From: Escherichia coli | GTDB lineage: Bacteria > Pseudomonadota > Gammaproteobacteria > Enterobacterales > Enterobacteriaceae | Assembly: GCF_050920415.1 (NCBI RefSeq) | Contig: NZ_CP169309.1 | Length of the DNA: 64,000 nt | Strand: one strand, 5' to 3' | Part shown: piece after piece, positions 8,489-58,532 of the stretch | How the letters are laid out: each line of letters begins with the position of its first letter | Numbering within the stretch: position 1 is the stretch's first letter | Translations under genes and position numbers: made by a program | The notes under the pieces: model-generated | What the model was told of the DNA's origin: nothing | The model's database searches: none | Seen by the model: the letters and a program-made list of their open reading frames with translations, nothing else

Positions 8489-9933
8489 TGCAGGAAATCT
8501 ATCGTTTTATCGACGATGCGATTGAAGCCGATCGCCAACGTTATACCGATATTGCTGATCAAATCTGGGATCATCCAGAAACACGTTTTGAAGAGTTCTG
8601 GTCAGCGGAACATCTGGCTTCGGCGCTGGAATCTGCAGGCTTCACCGTTACCCGCAACGTAGGCAATATCCCAAATGCCTTTATTGCTTCGTTTGGTCAA
8701 GGCAAACCGGTTATCGCCCTGCTGGGGGAATATGACGCCCTGGCAGGTTTAAGTCAGCAAGCAGGGTGCGCGCAACCTACATCCGCGACGCCCGGTGAAA
8801 ATGGTCACGGTTGCGGACACAATTTGCTCGGAACCGCCGCCTTTGCCGCAGCAATAGCCGTCAAGAAATGGCTGGAACAATATGGGCAAGGCGGCACGGT
8901 GCGCTTTTATGGTTGTCCTGGCGAAGAAGGCGGCTCGGGTAAAACGTTCATGGTCCGCGAGGGGGTATTTGATGATGTGGATGCGGCACTCACCTGGCAC
9001 CCGGAAGCCTTTGCCGGTATGTTCAATACCCGCACGCTGGCAAACATTCAGGCATCATGGCGCTTTAAAGGGATCGCAGCACATGCTGCAAATTCCCCTC
9101 ATTTGGGACGCAGCGCCCTTGATGCCGTAACGTTGATGACCACTGGCACCAACTTCCTCAACGAACATATTATTGAAAAAGCGCGCGTACACTATGCCAT
9201 CACAGAGAGCGGCGGGATCTCGCCCAACGTGGTCCAGGCGCAGGCAGAAGTGCTTTATCTTATCCGCGCCCCCGAAATGACCGACGTGCAGCATATTTAT
9301 GATCGGGTAGCCAAAATCGCCGAAGGTGCGGCATTGATGACCGAAACCACGGTTGAATGCCGCTTCGACAAAGCCTGTTCCAGTTATCTCCCTAATCGCA
9401 CCTTAGAAAAGGCCATGTACCAGGCTCTGTCCCATTTTGGAACCCCTGAATGGAAATCCGAAGAACTGGCTTTTGCGAAACAAATTCAGGCTACGCTCAC
9501 CCCCAACGATCGGCAAAACAGTCTGAATAATATCGCCGCAACCGGTGGAGAAAACGGCAAGGCTTTTGCACTACGTCATCGTGAAACGGTACTGGCGAAT
9601 GAAGTCGCTCCATATGCCGCCACCGATAACGTGCTTGCGGCATCAACTGATGTCGGCGACGTCAGTTGGAAACTGCCTGTTGCCCAGTGTTTAAGCCCCT
9701 GTTTCGCCGTCGGTACACCGCTACATACGTGGCAACTGGTTAGCCAGGGGCGAACGTCTATTGCTCATAAAGGAATGCTGCTGGCGGCGAAAACTATAGC
9801 AGCAACCACACTTAATCTCTTCATTGATTCAGGGCTATTGCAAGAATGCCAACAAGAGCATCAGCAAGTTACGGACACGCAACCGTATCACTGCCCTATC
9901 CCGAAAAACGTGACACCGTCACCTTTAAAATAA
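8488..9933 (+). CDS. abgB: p-aminobenzoyl-glutamate hydrolase subunit B (M20 peptidase)
   Basis: 481 aa; ATGA overlap with abgA stop. Confidence 0.92.
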   Translation: MQEIYRFIDDAIEADRQRYTDIADQIWDHPETRFEEFWSAEHLASALESAGFTVTRNVGNIPNAFIASFGQGKPVIALLGEYDALAGLSQQAGCAQPTSATPGENGHGCGHNLLGTAAFAAAIAVKKWLEQYGQGGTVRFYGCPGEEGGSGKTFMVREGVFDDVDAALTWHPEAFAGMFNTRTLANIQASWRFKGIAAHAANSPHLGRSALDAVTLMTTGTNFLNEHIIEKARVHYAITESGGISPNVVQAQAEVLYLIRAPEMTDVQHIYDRVAKIAEGAALMTETTVECRFDKACSSYLPNRTLEKAMYQALSHFGTPEWKSEELAFAKQIQATLTPNDRQNSLNNIAATGGENGKAFALRHRETVLANEVAPYAATDNVLAASTDVGDVSWKLPVAQCLSPCFAVGTPLHTWQLVSQGRTSIAHKGMLLAAKTIAATTLNLFIDSGLLQECQQEHQQVTDTQPYHCPIPKNVTPSPLK

Positions 9934-40306: not shown

Positions 40307-41791
40307 TTAAAATCCGCGCAGGCGCTTAGGTAACATAAGGCCCATTGCCTGAGGCTGGCTTAATTCAGTGATACCCCATACCATTGCGTCGAGGCGGTCC
40401 GGGGATTTTTTAGCGGTAGCTGGCACGTATTCCATCATTTGATTTTCCAGCGTGTACAGGCTGCCTGTGTGGGCCACCCTTCCCTGTGCATACAGTGCCG
40501 ATATTGGCTCGGCGCGGGCGAATTTACCTTTGCTTGCGTGCACCTTAACAATGCGGCCTTTGAATCCGGCATTACGTAGCGTGGCTTCCGCCATCTCCCC
40601 GCCCTGGTTTGTTTCGATAACTATCGCGTCAGCTTCATGGATCTCATAAGCGTTCATTGCGGCTTGCGCCCAGTCGTTAGGAGACATGCGGCCTGAGTAG
40701 TCGCCGTCTACTGAATATTGCGCGTGCTTACCACCACCATAAGCGGAACAAGCCATAATCCCTGTTTCGTCAGACTCTTCCGATGATGTTGTTGCCGGGT
40801 CAATGGCTATCACCGTGCGGATCTTGTCCTGCGTTATCTGCATCCGGTGAGCGGCGGTTATCATCGCTTCAGTCCATAACGCGCCTTCTTCGTCGAATTT
40901 ACGCGGGCGCTGCATGTACTGGGCCTCAAATGACCGTCTGTGCGCCTTCAGTCCGGCTTCATGGCTGTCATTGTGCTTTTTAGGCCATAGCCAGCCGTCC
41001 GGCAGGTTGTGAGCAATAGGGATGGCGAATTCGTTTTCCGGGTACAGATCCCAATAGTCGATGCTATTGTCGATCTTCACTGGCAGGTTAAGGTGATACC
41101 ATTTCTCACCACTGCCACCGCGTAACAGGTAGCCGGACAAATCATCGTAGTGGATGCGCTGCATAATGACGATCACGGGCGTGGTTTGCACTGCCAGACG
41201 TGAAGCCAGCGTGTCGTTATAGTTGGTCTTTACCTTCTCCCGCATCACATCAGAGTAAGCGTCAGCGGGCTTTAATGGGTCGTCGATAATCATCGCGCCG
41301 TTAAAGCCTGGCTCCATGTAACCAGCACGAAAACCCGTAATCTGACCGTGTGACGATGCGGCATATATCCCGCCGCCCTGTTCCGTCCACCACATCGATT
41401 TACTGTTGGCATCGTTGCGGATCTTCATGGGCCATAGCTTTTGGTATTCCTGCGAACAAACCATGCTTCTGACTGTCGATGAATTGAGTAATGCCAGATT
41501 GTCGGAATAGGAAACATGAAGGAAGCGTGTGCGGGGATTTATTGCGAGGGACCGCGCCATCATATTGATGGTTGCGATCATGGTTTTACCGTACCCTGGG
41601 GGGATGTTAATGATGAGGCGGGTAATCTCACCATTAATAACACGCTGTAGCGCATCACGGATGGCTATGTGGTGTCCTGAGATTAACATCTTCGTTCCGT
41701 TTGCTTGCTTGTAGAAGTAACGGTTGAAGAACAGGCCATCGTTTTCACATTTTGACTGAATAACCCTTTCTTTGATGGACAACATAATCAC
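40307..41791 (-). CDS. Terminase large subunit
   Basis: 494 aa; Walker A PPGYGKT; IIDDP Walker B; C-terminal nuclease-like region. Confidence 0.88.
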   Translation of the reverse strand: MIMLSIKERVIQSKCENDGLFFNRYFYKQANGTKMLISGHHIAIRDALQRVINGEITRLIINIPPGYGKTMIATINMMARSLAINPRTRFLHVSYSDNLALLNSSTVRSMVCSQEYQKLWPMKIRNDANSKSMWWTEQGGGIYAASSHGQITGFRAGYMEPGFNGAMIIDDPLKPADAYSDVMREKVKTNYNDTLASRLAVQTTPVIVIMQRIHYDDLSGYLLRGGSGEKWYHLNLPVKIDNSIDYWDLYPENEFAIPIAHNLPDGWLWPKKHNDSHEAGLKAHRRSFEAQYMQRPRKFDEEGALWTEAMITAAHRMQITQDKIRTVIAIDPATTSSEESDETGIMACSAYGGGKHAQYSVDGDYSGRMSPNDWAQAAMNAYEIHEADAIVIETNQGGEMAEATLRNAGFKGRIVKVHASKGKFARAEPISALYAQGRVAHTGSLYTLENQMMEYVPATAKKSPDRLDAMVWGITELSQPQAMGLMLPKRLRGF

Positions 41792-42273
41792 ACCTCGTCT
41801 TCTACTTCCTGGACGATGCGGGCGATCTCTTCTTTCGTGACTTCAACCTGGACGGGCGCTTCTTCCTTGTTGCCAATAATCTCTTGTGTGACGCGTTCGC
41901 CATATTTACGCGGTTGCAGTTTTGCCAGTAACCATTTGCGCGTTTCAATCATTAGTTGGTGGCGGCGTAGTTGGTCTTTATCAACGTTTTTAGCATCATC
42001 AGCAATGTCGATGATTTCATCAGCTAATACCTCGAAACCGATCTCCTTCGCGCGCATATACATGTCCGAAAATTCAGGCACATCCCTAAACCACTTAAGA
42101 ATTGTTGAACGTGATGGCATACCAGGCATCTTCGAAATTTTGTTAACGCTCTGACCGTCCGCCACCAGCTCACAAATCTCTAACGCCTTTTCTTCGGTAT
42201 AACCATGCGGACGGCCCACCTTTTTAGCGGCTGGCTTTTTGTCGTCAGCATTTGCCTTTTTAGTGCGGGCCAT
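41788..42273 (-). CDS. Terminase small subunit (HTH)
   Basis: 161 aa; Lys-rich N-terminus; HTH SVNKISKMPGMPSRSTILKW; overlaps the TerL start. Confidence 0.75.
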   Translation of the reverse strand: MARTKKANADDKKPAAKKVGRPHGYTEEKALEICELVADGQSVNKISKMPGMPSRSTILKWFRDVPEFSDMYMRAKEIGFEVLADEIIDIADDAKNVDKDQLRRHQLMIETRKWLLAKLQPRKYGERVTQEIIGNKEEAPVQVEVTKEEIARIVQEVEDEV

Positions 42274-42283
42274 ATTTCACCTC

Positions 42284-42367
42284 TCAATATTTATTGATGA
42301 TATATACGCAAGCTACAAAACTTGCACAGTATGTTAATACTTCCAACCAGTCGAATAGCTCTTTCAT
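42284..42367 (-). CDS. Mini-ORF 10 of the array, 27 aa single-TM peptide
   Basis: MKELFDWLEVLTYCASFVACVYIINKY; AAGGG SD; its stop lies within the terS SD region. Confidence 0.5.
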   Translation of the reverse strand: MKELFDWLEVLTYCASFVACVYIINKY

Positions 42368-42377
42368 TGTTTACCCT

Positions 42378-42449
42378 TTACATAATCGAAAGCGCCCAGG
42401 TAATAAGGACGATAGCCAAAACCATGCAGATAAAATCTGACTCTCTCAT
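42378..42449 (-). CDS. Mini-ORF 9, 23 aa single-TM peptide
   Basis: MRESDFICMVLAIVLITWALSIM; AAGGTGG SD. Confidence 0.5.
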   Translation of the reverse strand: MRESDFICMVLAIVLITWALSIM

Positions 42450-42463
42450 ATTGTCCACCTTGT

Positions 42464-42532
42464 TTACGCGAAGAAAACAATAACAGCTAACAGCGTGCAT
42501 ATAGCCATAATTAAGAAATCACTATCAGACAT
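42464..42532 (-). CDS. Mini-ORF 8, 22 aa single-TM peptide
   Basis: MSDSDFLIMAICTLLAVIVFFA; GGGAGTG SD; start overlaps the upstream stop. Confidence 0.5.
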   Translation of the reverse strand: MSDSDFLIMAICTLLAVIVFFA

Positions 42533-42599
42533 TGATAATCACTCCCACGATAATTAACGCTGCTATACATACGAACAATACAGCTTCGATAACATCCAT
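42525..42599 (-). CDS. Mini-ORF 7, 24 aa single-TM peptide
   Basis: MDVIEAVLFVCIAALIIVGVIINV; AGGTGAG SD. Confidence 0.5.
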   Translation of the reverse strand: MDVIEAVLFVCIAALIIVGVIINV

Positions 42600-42607
42600 T
42601 CGCTCAC

Positions 42608-42676
42608 CTATTGAGTTAGCGCGGTCATGGTAAGAACAATCGCAACGATCAGGAAAAAGAAATCAAGCCATTTCAT
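42608..42676 (-). CDS. Mini-ORF 6, 22 aa single-TM peptide
   Basis: MKWLDFFFLIVAIVLTMTALTQ; ATGA overlap with mini-ORF 5; GGGAG SD. Confidence 0.5.
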   Translation of the reverse strand: MKWLDFFFLIVAIVLTMTALTQ

Positions 42677-42753
42677 TTTTTAAACTCCCGATAAACATCT
42701 ACGGCAATCACTGTAATAACAGCCACCAGCAATAGCATTTCATATGCGTTCAT
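42673..42753 (-). CDS. Mini-ORF 5, 26 aa single-TM peptide
   Basis: MNAYEMLLLVAVITVIAVDVYREFKK; AGGTGA SD. Confidence 0.5.
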   Translation of the reverse strand: MNAYEMLLLVAVITVIAVDVYREFKK

Positions 42754-42761
42754 GCTTTCAC

Positions 42762-42836
42762 CTATACAACGTTATTCCACCAGAAATAGATAATGACTGC
42801 GACCAACGACCACCAGATGAGATCGTAAATGTTCAT
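42762..42836 (-). CDS. Mini-ORF 4, 24 aa single-TM peptide
   Basis: MNIYDLIWWSLVAVIIYFWWNNVV; weak SD only. Confidence 0.4.
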   Translation of the reverse strand: MNIYDLIWWSLVAVIIYFWWNNVV

Positions 42837-42848
42837 GATTAAATACCG

Positions 42849-42923
42849 TCAGCTCTCAATGAATATCATGATCGCCAGCCATACAGCGACGCAGGCAGAA
42901 AGAACAATAAGCGGATCAATCAT
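42849..42923 (-). CDS. Mini-ORF 3, 24 aa single-TM peptide (alternative start 42935)
   Basis: MIDPLIVLSACVAVWLAIMIFIES; GGGTGG SD. Confidence 0.5.
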   Translation of the reverse strand: MIDPLIVLSACVAVWLAIMIFIES

Positions 42924-42935
42924 ATTGCCACCCAT

Positions 42936-43031
42936 CTAATATTTGCTCATTACGGTTATAAGCACGGCGATAACGAAGCCAACCAGAAATATAGATATAC
43001 CTATTAATCCGGCGATGATGCTTTCGTCCAT
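42936..43031 (-). CDS. Mini-ORF 2, 31 aa single-TM peptide
   Basis: MDESIIAGLIGISIFLVGFVIAVLITVMSKY; AGGA SD. Confidence 0.5.
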   Translation of the reverse strand: MDESIIAGLIGISIFLVGFVIAVLITVMSKY

Positions 43032-43033
43032 AA

Positions 43034-43123
43034 CTAATCCTGCATAGACATAACCACCAGAAACAAGCAAAGGATGAATCCAGCCGCCATCCCACCGATG
43101 AAAGTTAGTATTGATGCGATCAT
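43034..43123 (-). CDS. Mini-ORF 1, 29 aa single-TM peptide
   Basis: MIASILTFIGGMAAGFILCLFLVVMSMQD; GAGG SD; starts 2 nt after the upstream stop. Confidence 0.5.
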   Translation of the reverse strand: MIASILTFIGGMAAGFILCLFLVVMSMQD

Positions 43124-43125
43124 AA

Positions 43126-43656
43126 TCAGCCTCGTTTAAAGCTCATAACACGCGGTACAAGCGCTTCTTTTGCTTTCGGCTTACGTTTGCCTTTCTTTGC
43201 GGGTTTTTCTTCCTTCGGCTGTTCTAATGCCTGCTCGACGACTTCAGCCGCCTGCATTGCCGCTACTTGTGCTTCGTTTGATTCAGCCAGGATAGGGAAA
43301 AATGCATCGAAGATACGGCCTACCATGTAAGCGTAAGTCTCATTCGCCGGGTGAGTTGGATCAGTGATCGCCACGACGCCAACATCACTTAAAACGTGGA
43401 ATGTAGTGTGAGCGCATTCATGTACCAGCGTTCCTAACTCATTGTCGAATACTGCGATCACGTAGAAGTTACCGCCTTTCTCACCAGTGCAAGTAAGCGT
43501 CAATCCTCCAGCCAGTTCGAAATCAGGTTCGATTGGAATTCCTGCCTTTTCGCAAAATTCATAAAACATCTCGCGGGTCGGGCAAAAGAAAACGGTTGTA
43601 TGCTCAAAGAGCGGGATCTTGAATTGAGGCAACTTAATGCCTTTAGCCTTAGCCAT
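43126..43656 (-). CDS. HExxH-motif protein (putative zinc metallopeptidase) with Lys-rich C-terminal tail
   Basis: 176 aa; LVHECAHTTFH contains HExxH; C-terminus KEEKPAKKGKRKPKAKE. Confidence 0.55.
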   Translation of the reverse strand: MAKAKGIKLPQFKIPLFEHTTVFFCPTREMFYEFCEKAGIPIEPDFELAGGLTLTCTGEKGGNFYVIAVFDNELGTLVHECAHTTFHVLSDVGVVAITDPTHPANETYAYMVGRIFDAFFPILAESNEAQVAAMQAAEVVEQALEQPKEEKPAKKGKRKPKAKEALVPRVMSFKRG

Positions 43657-43983: not shown

Positions 43984-44454
43984 TTATTTTTTGCGTAAGC
44001 ACTGCGTTTTGATATAGCTCTGAAGTCCGGTGATCTTCGCGTCTTTCTCTTTTAGTTGTTCTCTGAGGGATAGATAAGCCGATTCAGCGTCGGGAGTGAG
44101 TCTACAGGTGGCTCCATCAATGCGGCTGGCGGTTCCGGTATTGTCGAGTAATCGCACTGGCTCGGCGTTGACGTGCAACCGGATAGTACCGCTATCAATG
44201 CCTGCACGCAGATCGGCAATGTCAGATCTGATAGCTTTAATTTCATCGTGATACCTCTTATCAAGTTTTGACAGTTCGGCGTTTCGCTCCTTCATCTGCT
44301 GAATAGTGTTACTTGCTGTTTTTAGTGCGCCTTGCGTCACCGTGACTTCTTCCTGTAACCTTGCCGCCTCACCGTGGTAATAACATGTAACGGCAGCTAG
44401 CCCGGCAATAATGCAAACAACAACGGCGATGATTAACGCCTTTACCTTGTCCAT
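43984..44454 (-). CDS. Spanin inner-membrane subunit (Rz-like)
   Basis: 156 aa; N-terminal TM helix then coiled coil; directly after the endolysin; contains an embedded lipoprotein ORF. Confidence 0.85.
44052..44246 (-). CDS. Spanin outer-membrane lipoprotein subunit (Rz1-like), embedded in Rz in the +1 frame
   Basis: Track ORF 44052..44264; start at [24 protein letters not shown] (lipobox LSGC); Pro-rich mature part. Confidence 0.8.
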   Translation of the reverse strand: MKLKLSDLTLPICVQALIAVLSGCTSTPSQCDYSTIPEPPAALMEPPVDSLPTLNRLIYPSENN

Positions 44455-44933
44455 GTTTCACCCCATTCGCAAACGGCATATTCAACATCACGGCGATTGA
44501 TTAAACCTTGCCACTGCTTACCGCCAGCATAGATCCAGCGTTTAAGCTGTGCGCACGCTTCTGATTTCTTGCCGTCATTGAGTAGCTTCAATAAGGTTGA
44601 TGTTTTGAAATTGGTTGCGCCTACGTTATAGGCGAATGAATAAAGCGCCGCGCGGGTAAAATCTGATATTTCGACTTTAATATACGGGTCAATCGCTTTT
44701 GCGGTCTTGTGGAGATCTTTGTTTAACAAAGCATCGCATTCTGATTGCGTGTAAGTCTTACCAAGCATGATGTCTTTTCCGGTGTGACCATAGCAAACAG
44801 TCCATACACCGATAACATCACGATACGGATCGTACTCCACGCCTTCTAATGGTTTAACCATCACAGCCGCAATAGCGATCGCCCCACCAGCCGCCGCAGC
44901 AATAATCTTATTCTTCAGCGATTGGCTAATCAT
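44442..44933 (-). CDS. SAR endolysin (T4-lysozyme-type, GH24)
   Basis: Track ORF 44442..45014; start at [26 protein letters not shown] (signal-anchor-release helix); E-x8-D-x5-T catalytic triad in [17 protein letters not shown]; strongly resembles the phage 21 R protein. Confidence 0.88.
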
Positions 44934-44934
44934 G

Positions 44935-45135
44935 TTACTTATTCCCCATTCGCGCGTCGTGTTCCTCTTGCGCTCGTTTGTTCTCCTGTGATTTGAAGTA
45001 ATAATTAACGGCAAATGTGCCTATGGTTGATAAGATACCCACAAATACAGCAACATCATTAATGGTTATCGCACCAAAAAAGGCCGTTACGGCCCCTACT
45101 GCATACGCGCACACCTCCCGTATTTTGTCGAACAT
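44935..45135 (-). CDS. Holin (66 aa, two TM segments, charged C-terminus)
   Basis: Track ORF; GGAGG SD; immediately upstream of the endolysin. Confidence 0.75.
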
Positions 45136-45240: not shown

Positions 45241-45417
45241 CTACAGTTTCTTAATTAATAGCCCATTATCAAGTAATAATTGCATTTGCTCGCGGCTCAT
45301 TAGTGAATCTTTCCAGTATGGGTCATCAATAGTCATAATCATCACTTTGTCGCCTTTTAGCATGTAGGCTATACCGAACAAAGTATGTGAATAAACACCA
45401 TCTTCGATCTCATTCAT
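45241..45417 (-). CDS. Hypothetical 58-aa protein, paralogue family member 3
   Basis: My translation: MNEIEDGVYSHTLFGIAYMLKGDKVMIMTIDDPYWKDSLMSREQMQLLLDNGLLIKKL; ATGA overlap with the upstream gene. Confidence 0.5.
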   Translation of the reverse strand: MNEIEDGVYSHTLFGIAYMLKGDKVMIMTIDDPYWKDSLMSREQMQLLLDNGLLIKKL

Positions 45418-45596
45418 AGTCCGCTAACCCTTACCACATCGCCGTTATAAAGCATGATTTCAATCATTGCTCGCGTCATCTCGATGAATGGCTTCCTCCA
45501 GTCACCACCATCAATACAGACACGAATATCATCACCTTCCACGCGGTAAAACATCTCGTCGATTAGTGTTACGGCGTATATACCATCTTCAATCAT
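45414..45596 (-). CDS. Hypothetical 60-aa protein, paralogue family member 2
   Basis: Track ORF; FYRVEGDDIRVCIDGGDWRKPFIEMT parallels neighbour YYRLEGEHVMMRLHQLEPWHEPFLTMT. Confidence 0.55.
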   Translation of the reverse strand: MIEDGIYAVTLIDEMFYRVEGDDIRVCIDGGDWRKPFIEMTRAMIEIMLYNGDVVRVSGL

Positions 45597-45821
45597 TTAA
45601 CTATCCTCTTTGAATAGCCTAAATTTAATATCGCCAATCTTGCGCCAGTATCCGTGATTAAACATCGCGATGATCTCCGCAGATGTCATAGTTAAAAACG
45701 GTTCATGCCACGGCTCAAGCTGGTGTAATCGCATCATTACGTGTTCACCTTCAAGGCGATAATAAGCGCGTGACGCCAATGACTGATAAACACCGTCATA
45801 TTTATGGTCGCTATTTCCCAT
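45597..45821 (-). CDS. Hypothetical 74-aa protein, paralogue family member 1
   Basis: Track ORF 45597..45866; start at MGNSDHKYDG with AAGGGG SD. Confidence 0.55.
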   Translation of the reverse strand: MGNSDHKYDGVYQSLASRAYYRLEGEHVMMRLHQLEPWHEPFLTMTSAEIIAMFNHGYWRKIGDIKFRLFKEDS

Positions 45822-46011
45822 TTTTACGCCCCTTAATGGCTCTTTTGATCTGCGTGCGCGTGGCATCGACGAAAGCGATAAACACCGCTACAGGCCAGAA
45901 AGGAATCTCAAGGCCACCACGATCGAGATCATTAGATTTGATAAAACAATACATCAGGATAGCGCCAGCGATATAAAGGAGAAACACAGCAATGATAAGA
46001 CATTCAATCAT
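45811..46011 (-). CDS. Small membrane protein (66 aa)
   Basis: Track ORF; two hydrophobic segments; basic tail. Confidence 0.5.
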   Translation of the reverse strand: MIECLIIAVFLLYIAGAILMYCFIKSNDLDRGGLEIPFWPVAVFIAFVDATRTQIKRAIKGRKNGK

Positions 46012-46144
46012 CCTCTTTCTCCCCGCCTAAATATTGATATATTTCTTCAGCATTTTCCCCGCGCTCAAAACAATAATGTTCAAACATGCGCCAGTGTTCA
46101 CTAAGAAACATAACAATAAAATTGTTAACGTATTCGTCATCCAT
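46007..46144 (-). CDS. Hypothetical acidic 45-aa protein
   Basis: My translation: MDDEYVNNFIVMFLSEHWRMFEHYCFERGENAEEIYQYLGGEKEDD; fills the gap between track ORFs with overlapping stop/start. Confidence 0.4.
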
Positions 46145-48066: not shown

Positions 48067-48279
48067 TTAATAACGCTCAAAACTGGCGGAAAAATCAATG
48101 CCTGATATCTCACCGCCACGATAAGTTGGCATAAATCCCCACACATCATCATGATCATCAATCAATACAAGCGCCACGCCAACATCGCTAATCCCATTGC
48201 CATAAACAATGTGAACATCATAAATACGCCCAGGAGTGAAAACGCTGTCATTACTTGAGTATGTGCATTTAACTTGCAT
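48067..48279 (-). CDS. Hypothetical protein (70 aa)
   Basis: Track ORF; operon packing. Confidence 0.5.
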   Translation of the reverse strand: MQVKCTYSSNDSVFTPGRIYDVHIVYGNGISDVGVALVLIDDHDDVWGFMPTYRGGEISGIDFSASFERY

Positions 48280-56281: not shown

Positions 56282-56465
56282 GTAATGACACCTCCCTGAT
56301 AAGTTTGCTTAACTCAATGTTTATTAATCTGCGGAAATGTTGCTTTCCATCAGCAAAGTGCACCAAGTAAATATCACCAACAATGTTATAGTAGTAACAG
56401 CCGCTAAAACCAATTCCTGCCAATTTAGCGTTATCAGGCAACGTATAACCGCCAACATTTTTCAT
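56271..56465 (-). CDS. Hypothetical protein (64 aa)
   Basis: Track ORF; AGGTGA SD. Confidence 0.5.
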   Translation of the reverse strand: MKNVGGYTLPDNAKLAGIGFSGCYYYNIVGDIYLVHFADGKQHFRRLINIELSKLIREVSLHAI

Positions 56466-56468
56466 ATA

Positions 56469-56561
56469 TCACCTCATATGGTATTCAATAAACCACCTGA
56501 TAAACAGGCATAAGGCAATAAAACCCCAGCAACAGCACATATAAAACAATGTGTCGTCCAT
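56469..56561 (-). CDS. 30-aa Cys-rich single-TM peptide
   Basis: My translation: MDDTLFYMCCCWGFIALCLFIRWFIEYHMR; starts 3 nt after the upstream stop. Confidence 0.4.
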   Translation of the reverse strand: MDDTLFYMCCCWGFIALCLFIRWFIEYHMR

Positions 56562-58028: not shown

Positions 58029-58291
58029 ACGCCAAACATCCCATTCAGTCCGGCGAACAATTTCCGCCAGTGGTTTTCAGCATAAGCCCGGAACGGCTTA
58101 ACGCGAACATTGCGGGCCTTCAGTTCAATCTTGTCGAAGAAACGCGGCTCTATAATTGTTCCGTCCAGATATTTAACCAGGATCGGGCGCTCAAGATCGT
58201 TATAAGTCTTGTTCAGCACGACCAGGCCAGGGTCGCTACGATATTCTGGCAAAATAACAAGATCGCCCTCTTTTGCATTCCAAGTAACCAT
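58019..58291 (-). CDS. Hypothetical protein (90 aa)
   Basis: Track ORF 58019..58294, trimmed to the ATG; GGGGGTGA SD. Confidence 0.5.
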   Translation of the reverse strand: MVTWNAKEGDLVILPEYRSDPGLVVLNKTYNDLERPILVKYLDGTIIEPRFFDKIELKARNVRVKPFRAYAENHWRKLFAGLNGMFGVWL

Positions 58292-58410
58292 CACATCACC
58301 CCCTTACCAATAAAAGCCAATACCGCAGCAAGTGCTCCACAAAATACAACCGTAAACAGGAAACAAATAACGCAAAACGCGACATTCACAATGTCCTTAC
58401 CGACTTTCAT
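58291..58410 (-). CDS. 39-aa single-TM peptide
   Basis: My translation: MKVGKDIVNVAFCVICFLFTVVFCGALAAVLAFIGKGVM; GAGG SD; TGATG overlap with the next gene. Confidence 0.45.
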   Translation of the reverse strand: MKVGKDIVNVAFCVICFLFTVVFCGALAAVLAFIGKGVM

Positions 58411-58418
58411 GATTAACC

Positions 58419-58532
58419 TCACATATTAGTAATCAGTTTTATGATCGCTACCGTGATATAAAGAGAAGCAGCAAGATAAGCAACAGCTATTGCAACTCCA
58501 GCGGATAACGCTGCTATTTTGATTATGTTCAT
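58419..58532 (-). CDS. 37-aa single-TM peptide
   Basis: My translation: MNIIKIAALSAGVAIAVAYLAASLYITVAIIKLITNM; ATGA overlap with the upstream stop. Confidence 0.45.
   Translation of the reverse strand: MNIIKIAALSAGVAIAVAYLAASLYITVAIIKLITNM

Follow-up and report, generated by a model that had tools for sequence, protein, structure and literature searches.

The window analysed here is a 64,000-nucleotide stretch of an Escherichia coli chromosome, beside dbpA, ttcA, and zntB, that carries a prophage. Within the late module of this prophage, a gene for a HExxH protein (the gp49-like gene, 176 aa; 43126-43656) and the gene for an Sf6-like small terminase subunit (terS; 41788-42273; Pfam Sf6_terminase, E = 5e-38) are separated by 840 bp that hold an array of ten mini-open reading frames (mini-ORFs) of 22-31 codons. 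All of these genes lie on the minus strand, with terS downstream of the array in the same direction of transcription. The module reads, in order, HP1-family holin, lysozyme, Rz, a gap of ~330 bp, gp49-like gene, array, Sf6-type terS, terL, and portal. An earlier note on this DNA had written out the ten peptides and placed the two flanking genes; every peptide is found on the minus strand as an exact match to the raw sequence, and both flanks lie where the note put them. Its description of almost every base as coding also holds, since ORFs cover ~92% of the 840 bp, with all three reading frames in use.

The ORFs are tightly spaced. From the gp49-like gene through ORF10, the stop-to-start spacers are 2, 2, 12, 12, 8, -4 (ATGA), 8, -8, 14, and 10 nt, and the stop codon of ORF10, which falls inside the Shine-Dalgarno (SD) motif of terS, is 10 nt from the terS ATG. 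Such short spacers and overlapping stop and start codons suggest translational coupling. The GC content of the block is 38-41%, compared with 47-54% in the flanks, and its coding strand is T-rich, in line with apolar codons.

Coding evidence for the mini-ORFs

The window DNA matches the phages mEp021, mEp010, mEp013, mEp044, mEp515, mEp554, and MagusPhagus, as well as 34 of 5426 complete E. coli genomes. These matches are always patchy and made up of multiple pieces, which points to mosaic content. From holin through portal, the late module fits the synteny of mEp021-type phages, a group recently described as mEpimmI and put forward as a new family of siphoviruses that are Nus-dependent and non-lambdoid (PMC11893012). 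The comparisons below draw on 67 related loci (the window, 17 loci from GenBank/RefSeq, 48 from IMG/VR, and two metagenome contigs). In the loci compared, the gp49-like proteins are 77-96% and the TerS proteins 84-98% identical to those of the window.

When the gap was shuffled 2000 times with dinucleotide frequencies preserved, and chained hydrophobic ATG ORFs were counted, the shuffled gaps contained a mean of 1.1 and a maximum of four, whereas the real gap contains 9-10 and its reverse strand none. The integrity of the ORFs was scored on nucleotide homologues that had been gathered irrespective of reading frame. At nucleotide identities of 70-100%, the ORF is intact in 582 of 590 homologues (98.6%), which excludes a pattern of frame-breaking indels in the relatives. 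Of the eight broken copies, which look like occasional pseudogenisation, six have lost the start codon (ATG to ACG in the five members of one sub-lineage, ATG to ATA in a single copy), one has a frameshift, and one has lost its stop codon.

Substitutions are constrained in the proposed frame. The ratio of nonsynonymous to synonymous polymorphism (pN/pS) is 0.16-0.31 in that frame for 17 of 17 families tested, whereas either shift of the frame yields ~0.5-4; the value for terS in the same loci is 0.21. Variable sites number 148, 103, and 269 at codon positions 1, 2, and 3, respectively. At positions with a hydrophobic consensus, 95% of replacements stay apolar or uncharged, compared with the 77% expected from random single-base changes (p = 6e-12). 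Further, 79% of ORF starts (604 ORFs) have an SD match (≥4 nt) in front of them, compared with 32% of the remaining ATGs of these gaps. By these measures, the mini-ORFs are under selection as strong as that on the neighbouring terS, and this selection acts on the peptide sequence, beyond mere composition.

The individual ORFs, whose coordinates are given with the stop codon included, can be followed from the gp49-like side. ORF1 (MIASILTFIGGMAAGFILCLFLVVMSMQD, 29 aa; 43034-43123) occupies a variable first slot, and its family has 17 intact homologues (pN/pS 0.28). Next come ORF2 (MDESIIAGLIGISIFLVGFVIAVLITVMSKY, 31 aa; 42936-43031), intact in 51 of 51 homologues, and ORF3 (MIDPLIVLSACVAVWLAIMIFIES, 24 aa; 42849-42923), which is present in nearly all arrays and intact in 63 of 63; pN/pS is 0.29 for each. 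ORF3 has an in-frame alternative ATG upstream at 42935 (MGGNMIDPL...), and an in-frame upstream ATG also precedes ORF9 (MHAVSCYC...); in both cases, relatives favour the short start. ORF4 (MNIYDLIWWSLVAVIIYFWWNNVV, 24 aa; 42762-42836) is rich in Trp and Tyr, with 43 of 45 homologues intact and a pN/pS of 0.27, and its SD is weak in the window (GACGG) and AAGG in relatives. ORF5 (MNAYEMLLLVAVITVIAVDVYREFKK, 26 aa; 42673-42753), which has a strong SD (AGGTGA) and a basic C-tail, is intact in all 64 homologues (pN/pS 0.24). Its stop codon is overlapped by the start (ATGA) of ORF6 (MKWLDFFFLIVAIVLTMTALTQ, 22 aa; 42608-42676), for which 61 of 61 homologues are intact and pN/pS is 0.18.

ORF7 (MDVIEAVLFVCIAALIIVGVIINV, 24 aa; 42525-42599; pN/pS 0.26), with 31 of 31 homologues intact in addition to 18 of a variant termed H2, shares an 8-nt overlap with ORF8 (MSDSDFLIMAICTLLAVIVFFA, 22 aa; 42464-42532; pN/pS 0.28). 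For ORF8, 45 of 50 homologues are intact, and the sub-lineage without a start codon (ATG to ACG) is found here. ORF9 (MRESDFICMVLAIVLITWALSIM, 23 aa; 42378-42449), a paralogue of ORF6 and ORF8, is intact in 21 of 21 homologues, with 19 more of a J2 variant (pN/pS 0.25). Finally, ORF10 (MKELFDWLEVLTYCASFVACVYIINKY, 27 aa; 42284-42367) is the sole member found in every array and is intact in 64 of 64 homologues. Its pN/pS is 0.04 in a set of 18 loci (pN 0.008 vs. pS 0.21), and 0.21 once divergent mEp021-type alleles are added. Because it is present in every locus, nearly invariant, and marginally hydrophobic, and ends inside the terS SD, ORF10, alone among the ten, likely has a core role, which may be connected to the packaging module.

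Standard annotation overlooks nearly all of this block, even though its genes are constrained like terS. The gap is unannotated in the GenBank record of mEp021, and in every RefSeq locus inspected PGAP leaves 0.75-1.2 kb almost blank and calls at most one ORF there; once, it calls a spurious 129-aa coding sequence on the reverse strand over the array (locus L008:1559-1948, minus strand). Prodigal predicts a wrong-frame 41-aa ORF in one metagenomic relative (L067:4525-4650), and PHANOTATE calls some array ORFs in other mEp phages and in MagusPhagus, often fused or over-long. Eight of the ten exact peptide sequences were not found in a collection of 15 billion proteins.

This nearly blank annotation, the missing exact peptides, and the low GC content of the block would all suit a reading in which there are no genes here, and the ORFs arose by chance in a T-rich spacer, a pac or cos site, or a structured RNA. 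However, that reading is effectively refuted by the shuffle test, ORF integrity, and frame-specific pN/pS, and SD enrichment also speaks against it. A known non-coding element is likewise excluded: a search of the array gave no Rfam match above noise and no structured-RNA match, and the best candidate, an S15 leader, was dismissed because it scored 17.5 bits, below the gathering score of 39.5 bits. We consider it close to inconceivable that the block is non-coding, and the array almost certainly consists, as the earlier note had proposed, of real genes, here for hydrophobic microproteins.

Variation, duplication, and exchange of the cassettes

Both flanking genes were captured in 66 of the 67 loci, and in all 66 the gp49-like gene is followed by a gap of ~210-1154 bp and then by terS. 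The gap is filled on the gene strand by 2-13 back-to-back hydrophobic mini-ORFs (mean 9.3) of 20-47 codons, which sort, across the 67 loci, into ~20 peptide families. The order of the families is colinear, and the 65 loci that were parsed show 44 distinct gene contents; the phages therefore differ by gain or loss of whole ORFs. The units gained and lost are entire SD-flanked cassettes of ~75-100 bp, and in the first slot of the array, alleles that are only weakly related replace one another. When one genome per species was scanned with terS and with the gp49-like alignment, no relatives were returned, so the module appears confined to E. coli phages.

Some relatives carry other ORFs in or near the gap. 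In one (L011:1762-1839), a further mini-ORF (LNIYDLIWLLVLIVGIGVNIYRIW), similar to family D2, has an apparent TTG start that overlaps the preceding stop, and parsing for ATG starts alone therefore undercounts array members. Two loci (L010:2344-2490 and L017:2548-2691) have an extra acidic, soluble ORF of 47-48 aa (MNDEELKIADEIRK...) between the last transmembrane (TM) ORF and terS; this is among the few gap ORFs that PGAP annotates, and the 47-aa protein gives 47% matches to Klebsiella phages at E = 0.1. HNH endonuclease genes have been inserted, in different relatives, at three points of the module, namely gp49/array, lysozyme/Rz, and terS/terL (L006:999-1484, which is mEp013; L066:2752-3273; L067:5250-5753). 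In L066, from position 8491, a 635-aa Mu F-like product that starts after the portal gene has an Intein_splicing Pfam match.

The earlier note had suspected tandem duplication from a resemblance between peptides 8 and 9, and paralogy in fact reaches well beyond this pair, both in the peptides and in nucleotide repeats. Families G, G2, J, J2, and I have a common start, MxxxDF, whereas D, D2, F, and H2 have MNx[YI][DE] in common; L/L2, H/H2, and A2/A3/A4 form further related sets. All of these similarities score well above shuffled controls, and 12 of 24 families have Asp or Glu at position 5. At the nucleotide level, repeats of 27 nt (78% identity) and 40 nt (80%) join the linker and the 5' end of different cassettes. 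This is the pattern of an array that has expanded as its units were duplicated in tandem and then diverged. In L011, the ORF1-type cassette (L011:1567-1672) is bracketed by an exact 14-nt direct repeat, CGAGGCTGATTATG, made up of SD and start codon.

One cassette has a life outside this group of phages. Virulent rV5/FV3-like myoviruses (Vequintavirus) carry a 29-codon homologue of ORF1 in ~90 GenBank records, among them that of JeffSchatz, where it is bas55_0158 (L069:2501-2590; also L068:2501-2590). This copy agrees with the L011 allele at 83 of 90 nt (92%) and 26 of 29 aa, with differences of 1/0/6 by codon position, and its DNA is 76% identical to ORF1 of the window. It is flanked by similar SD linkers on both sides, and is a single gene within a cluster of small genes, with no lysis cassette nearby in the 5 kb examined. 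These features suggest that a ~100-bp micro-gene cassette moved between temperate siphovirus and virulent myovirus lineages, and the codon-position pattern is that of a cassette that stayed under purifying selection after transfer. Exchange combined with retained purifying selection is strong independent evidence that at least peptide 1 is a self-sufficient functional unit. In a tblastn search of phages and plasmids with concatenated peptides, both from the window and from other loci, peptide 1 alone was found outside the group; the single plasmid match is a 137.6-kb record that is possibly a Vequintavirus-like genome.

The gp49-like neighbour has its own history. Its product, a putative zincin-like metallopeptidase, consists of an N-terminal domain of ~125 aa, in which the motifs HExxH and NETxxY are invariant (HExxH...NETxxY), followed by a coiled, basic tail. 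It matches PHROG 1365 (unknown function) and has no Pfam or PDB sequence match; an AlphaFold2 model has a mean confidence (pLDDT) of 76. An exhaustive profile search returned 228 representative clusters, mostly stand-alone proteins of ~120 aa. In 80 IMG/VR loci with such distant homologues (L070-L149), an ORF of 150-170 aa follows directly or after one or two ordinary genes; in L075 (2501-3354), the one locus that was read through, this downstream ORF is clearly homologous by eye to the Sf6-type terS of the window. No mini-ORF array was present in any of the 80 loci, four of which have a single TM ORF of 56-59 aa. Judged from these loci, the stand-alone HExxH...NExxY family (phrog_1365-like, without a Pfam entry) is a conserved, uncharacterised partner of the packaging module in many unrelated phage contigs, and the ancestral order is gp49-like gene and then directly terS. 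The pairing of distant gp49-like genes with terS but without an array implies that the array is an mEpimmI-specific insertion, wedged into the junction. The earlier note, by setting the array beside the HExxH gene, had implied a link between them. This link found no support, and we rejected a functional pairing of the two, because the HExxH gene partners terS without an array in distant phages, and because in mEp013 an HNH gene separates gp49 from the array.

Upstream on the same strand lies the lysis cassette (43984..45135), formed by the HP1-family holin (44935-45135; Pfam match to Phage_holin_2_3), the lysozyme (~44442-44933), and Rz (43984-44454), the last of which is ~330 bp from the gp49-like gene. 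Three consecutive small soluble ORFs precede the holin on the minus strand (45241-45417, 45414-45596, and 45597-45866; 58, 60, and 89 aa), and an apparent common pattern, DG[VI]Y...Y[RM][LV]EG[DE], can be made out by eye; they may be a tandem paralogous set. The prophage may also carry further unannotated membrane micro-genes, because additional small hydrophobic ORFs of 29-66 aa lie on its gene strand (minus). They include two adjacent pairs, one (58291-58410 and 58419-58532) with ORFs of 90 aa or more on either side and the other at 56324-56458 and 56469-56561, and single ORFs at 48162-48251, 46027-46140, and 45811-46011. The 66-aa member has a PFWPV motif in common with Vequintavirus bas55_0167 (pairwise BLASTP E = 2e-5, a weak match).

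Possible functions of the peptides

Most of the peptides are probably single-pass inner-membrane helices with an acidic N-terminus. Hydrophobicity was estimated as a simple, approximate Hessa-scale sum over 17 residues, and seven of the ten peptides give clearly negative sums, like AcrZ and KdpF. Net charges range from -2 to 0, the cores are uniformly apolar, and a basic C-tail is found in three peptides only. A crude promoter scan found no promoter-like or terminator-like site inside the array on the gene strand; on the opposite strand, it gave three weak promoter-like sites, compared with 7.5 expected from shuffles.

The mechanism that we favour starts from these properties. Given the absence of internal promoter-like and terminator-like sites, and the overlapping stops and starts, the peptides would be translated from the late transcript, alongside the packaging proteins. 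They would then insert with the N-terminus out and the C-terminus in, an orientation suggested by the acidic N-terminus and by a C-terminus that, where charged, is basic. An acidic N-tail with a basic C-end is the pattern of substrates that depend on YidC and the proton-motive force, such as Pf3 coat, and insertion of the array peptides could be of this type, driven by the acidic N-tail. Each peptide might then bind, helix to helix, a host (or possibly a phage) inner-membrane protein. Together, the peptides would act as modular and mostly dispensable membrane modulators, with possible uses in exclusion, counter-defence, or tuning of the membrane before lysis. The dispensability of most members, seen in arrays of 2-13 genes and occasional pseudogenes, the strong conservation of those that are retained, the combination of fixed order with variable content, and the reuse of peptide 1 by an unrelated virulent phage all argue for accessory, host-directed functions, rather than for a fixed structural complex or for a partner specific to the phage's own holin. 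We regard this specific mechanism as plausible, though we would stop short of calling it probable.

Several points weigh against this mechanism. The earlier note had assigned all ten peptides a helix of 18-20 residues, and although the hydrophobic single helix stands, its uniformity does not: uncharged stretches range from 13 to 28 residues, and peptides 4, 5, and 10, with hydrophobic cores of ~15 residues, are only marginal membrane spanners. Expression that is exclusively late depends on the crude promoter scan, and the target-binding role is argued from analogy with characterised small membrane proteins. Further, no family other than that of peptide 1 was found outside the mEpimmI group, so there are no independent functional hints.

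Among other explanations, the peptides could be accessories of the lysis clock, which either act on the phage's own holin or pinholin in an antiholin-like or sensitising manner, or lower the proton-motive force, with the copy number (2-13) setting the time of lysis. The array does share the orientation of the holin-lysozyme-Rz cassette and lies ~0.86 kb downstream of it, a variable number of genes could tune dosage, and in T7 the holin gene 17.5 immediately precedes terS. Actinobacteriophage lysis cassettes, too, can contain as many as four 'holin-like' TM genes in tandem (PMC9671378). However, Rz, the ~330-bp gap, and the gp49-like gene separate the array from the cassette, and the prophage holin is clearly identified elsewhere as Phage_holin_2_3. 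Taking a holin as a lysis-cassette gene for a protein of ~60-150 aa with a charged C-terminal domain, the array peptides differ in size, position, and C-terminus, and they are two to four times shorter than known holins and antiholins. Searched against PHROG, eight of the peptides (those of ORF7 and ORF9 excepted) had no match better than E = 0.05, and the ten were not scanned against Pfam. In Vequintaviruses, peptide 1 is encoded by a stand-alone gene, and the 5 kb examined there contain no lysis cassette, which argues for a host target over the holin of this phage. We thus find a role in lysis timing unlikely. A collective membrane toxin, or a viroporin-like hetero-oligomer that permeabilises or depolarises the membrane nonspecifically in the manner of Ibs or TisB, seems distinctly unlikely. 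Although the size and hydrophobicity of the peptides are near those of IbsC on the same scale, and many copies would be co-expressed, purifying selection is sequence-specific and as strong as on terS (as in the ORF10 values from the 18-locus set), the families are kept as distinct lineages in a fixed order and are not interchangeable copies, and no antisense promoter or small RNA (sRNA) signal was found. A type I toxin-antitoxin reading was rejected because of the 75-95-bp units, the overlapping stops and starts, and the lack of any antisense or Rfam signal.

The tight spacing, the overlapping stops and starts, the stop of ORF10 within the terS SD, and the universal presence of ORF10 next to terS would also be expected of a translation relay, in which the passage of ribosomes prevents Rho-dependent polarity and feeds terS, and the peptides are by-products. 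Against this, the pN/pS range together with the conservative replacements indicates selection on amino acids, distant relatives have terS straight after the gp49-like gene with no need of a relay, and peptide 1 is kept in a different phage and context; a relay is very unlikely. Even less can be said for secreted peptides, that is, ribosomally synthesised and post-translationally modified peptides, leaderless bacteriocins, or precursors like phenol-soluble modulins (PSMs), processed by the HExxH protein. A zincin-like gene does lie directly upstream, and tandem short genes recall the PSM-alpha and aureocin A70 operons. However, the peptides are neutral or negatively charged with apolar cores and are not amphipathic-cationic, the module has no leader/core organisation and no exporter, immunity, or modification gene, its neighbours are lysis and packaging genes only, and the HExxH gene is paired with terS in phages without an array and separated from the array by the HNH gene in mEp013. 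A bacteriocin or PSM reading was rejected on the charge, the cores, and the neighbours, and we hold secretion to be highly improbable.

If the peptides are indeed membrane modulators, a broader and more tentative reading would be that mEpimmI phages carry a previously unrecognised accessory locus. This would be a hypervariable battery of paralogous TM microproteins of 20-30 residues, encoded by mobile, SD-flanked cassettes of ~100 bp, each of which disables or retunes a different host inner-membrane protein. The targets would include, for instance, a defence effector, the partner of a transporter or receptor, or a component of the insertion machinery. Were this true, and we think it doubtful as yet, the array would be the membrane-helix counterpart of anti-defence gene islands.

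The locus offers a compact natural test bed for work on microproteins, with ~20 related one-helix families and presence/absence variants of 2-13 genes in phages that grow on E. coli K-12 (mEp021 and relatives), and it shares one member with virulent rV5-like phages, which therapy collections make use of. Should the peptides act on host membrane proteins, minimal transmembrane inhibitors could be drawn from them, and the array would represent a new class of phage accessory locus; should they tune lysis, the number of genes would serve as a simple evolutionary dial.

Comparison with known systems

The earlier note's author knew of no described phage system of this form, and our searches agree. 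The paper on mEpimmI does not mention these ORFs, the terminase, or small or transmembrane proteins in the region (PMC11893012), and no description of the array was found in the full-text literature, either under the topics of small membrane proteins, phages, and tandem genes or with the literal peptide sequences. Among phages, the nearest likeness is to actinobacteriophage lysis cassettes, in which as many as four 'holin-like' TM genes, with one to four TM helices and without duplicates, stand in tandem (Pollenz et al. 2022, PMC9671378). As in the array, small TM genes are neighbours in the late part of a phage genome, not far from the endolysin; they come in combinations that differ between related phages, and few of them have a proven function. 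However, the actinobacteriophage proteins are several times larger and are encoded beside lysins, whereas the array has up to 13 paralogous genes apart from the cassette and abutting terS.

Tandem genes for single-helix peptides of similar size are known from quite different settings. In photosynthetic operons such as psbE-F-L-J, and with petG/L/N, back-to-back genes encode single-TM peptides of ~30-40 residues that are stoichiometric subunits; the gene content of these operons is fixed, whereas that of the array varies from 2 to 13 between close relatives. PSM-alpha, aureocin A70, and garvicin KS are also products of polycistronic genes of 20-35 codons, and their peptides are amphipathic, cationic, and exported, with transporter or immunity genes. 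The array peptides, in contrast, are anionic or neutral with a TM-like core. The type I toxins of the ibs/sib and ldr/rdl loci resemble the array in that their genes, repeated in tandem along E. coli genomes, encode very hydrophobic peptides of 18-35 residues (Fozo et al. 2010, PMC2887945). No sequence similarity of the array peptides to type I toxins was detected, and each toxin unit, with a promoter and an antisense sRNA to itself, takes up several hundred base pairs, unlike the much shorter, overlapping units of the array.

Enterobacterial intergenic small ORFs that are under purifying selection and mostly hydrophobic have been catalogued (PMC11188072), in a preprint whose text refers to no prophage and no tandem array. 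Those bacterial small membrane proteins that have been characterised work by attaching to larger membrane proteins, and AcrZ, KdpF, MgtS, and CydX share with the array peptides a single helix, a length of <50 residues, a history of being missed by annotation, and purifying selection (reviewed in PMC12648545). The genes of the AcrZ type are solitary, and usually lie next to, or regulate, the gene of their partner; none has been reported from a setting like the array, a ten-gene, polycistronic, paralogous run in a phage late operon. Thus, among small membrane proteins the array is unusual in the number of its genes, in its architecture of paralogous cassettes, and in the exchange of one cassette between unrelated phages.

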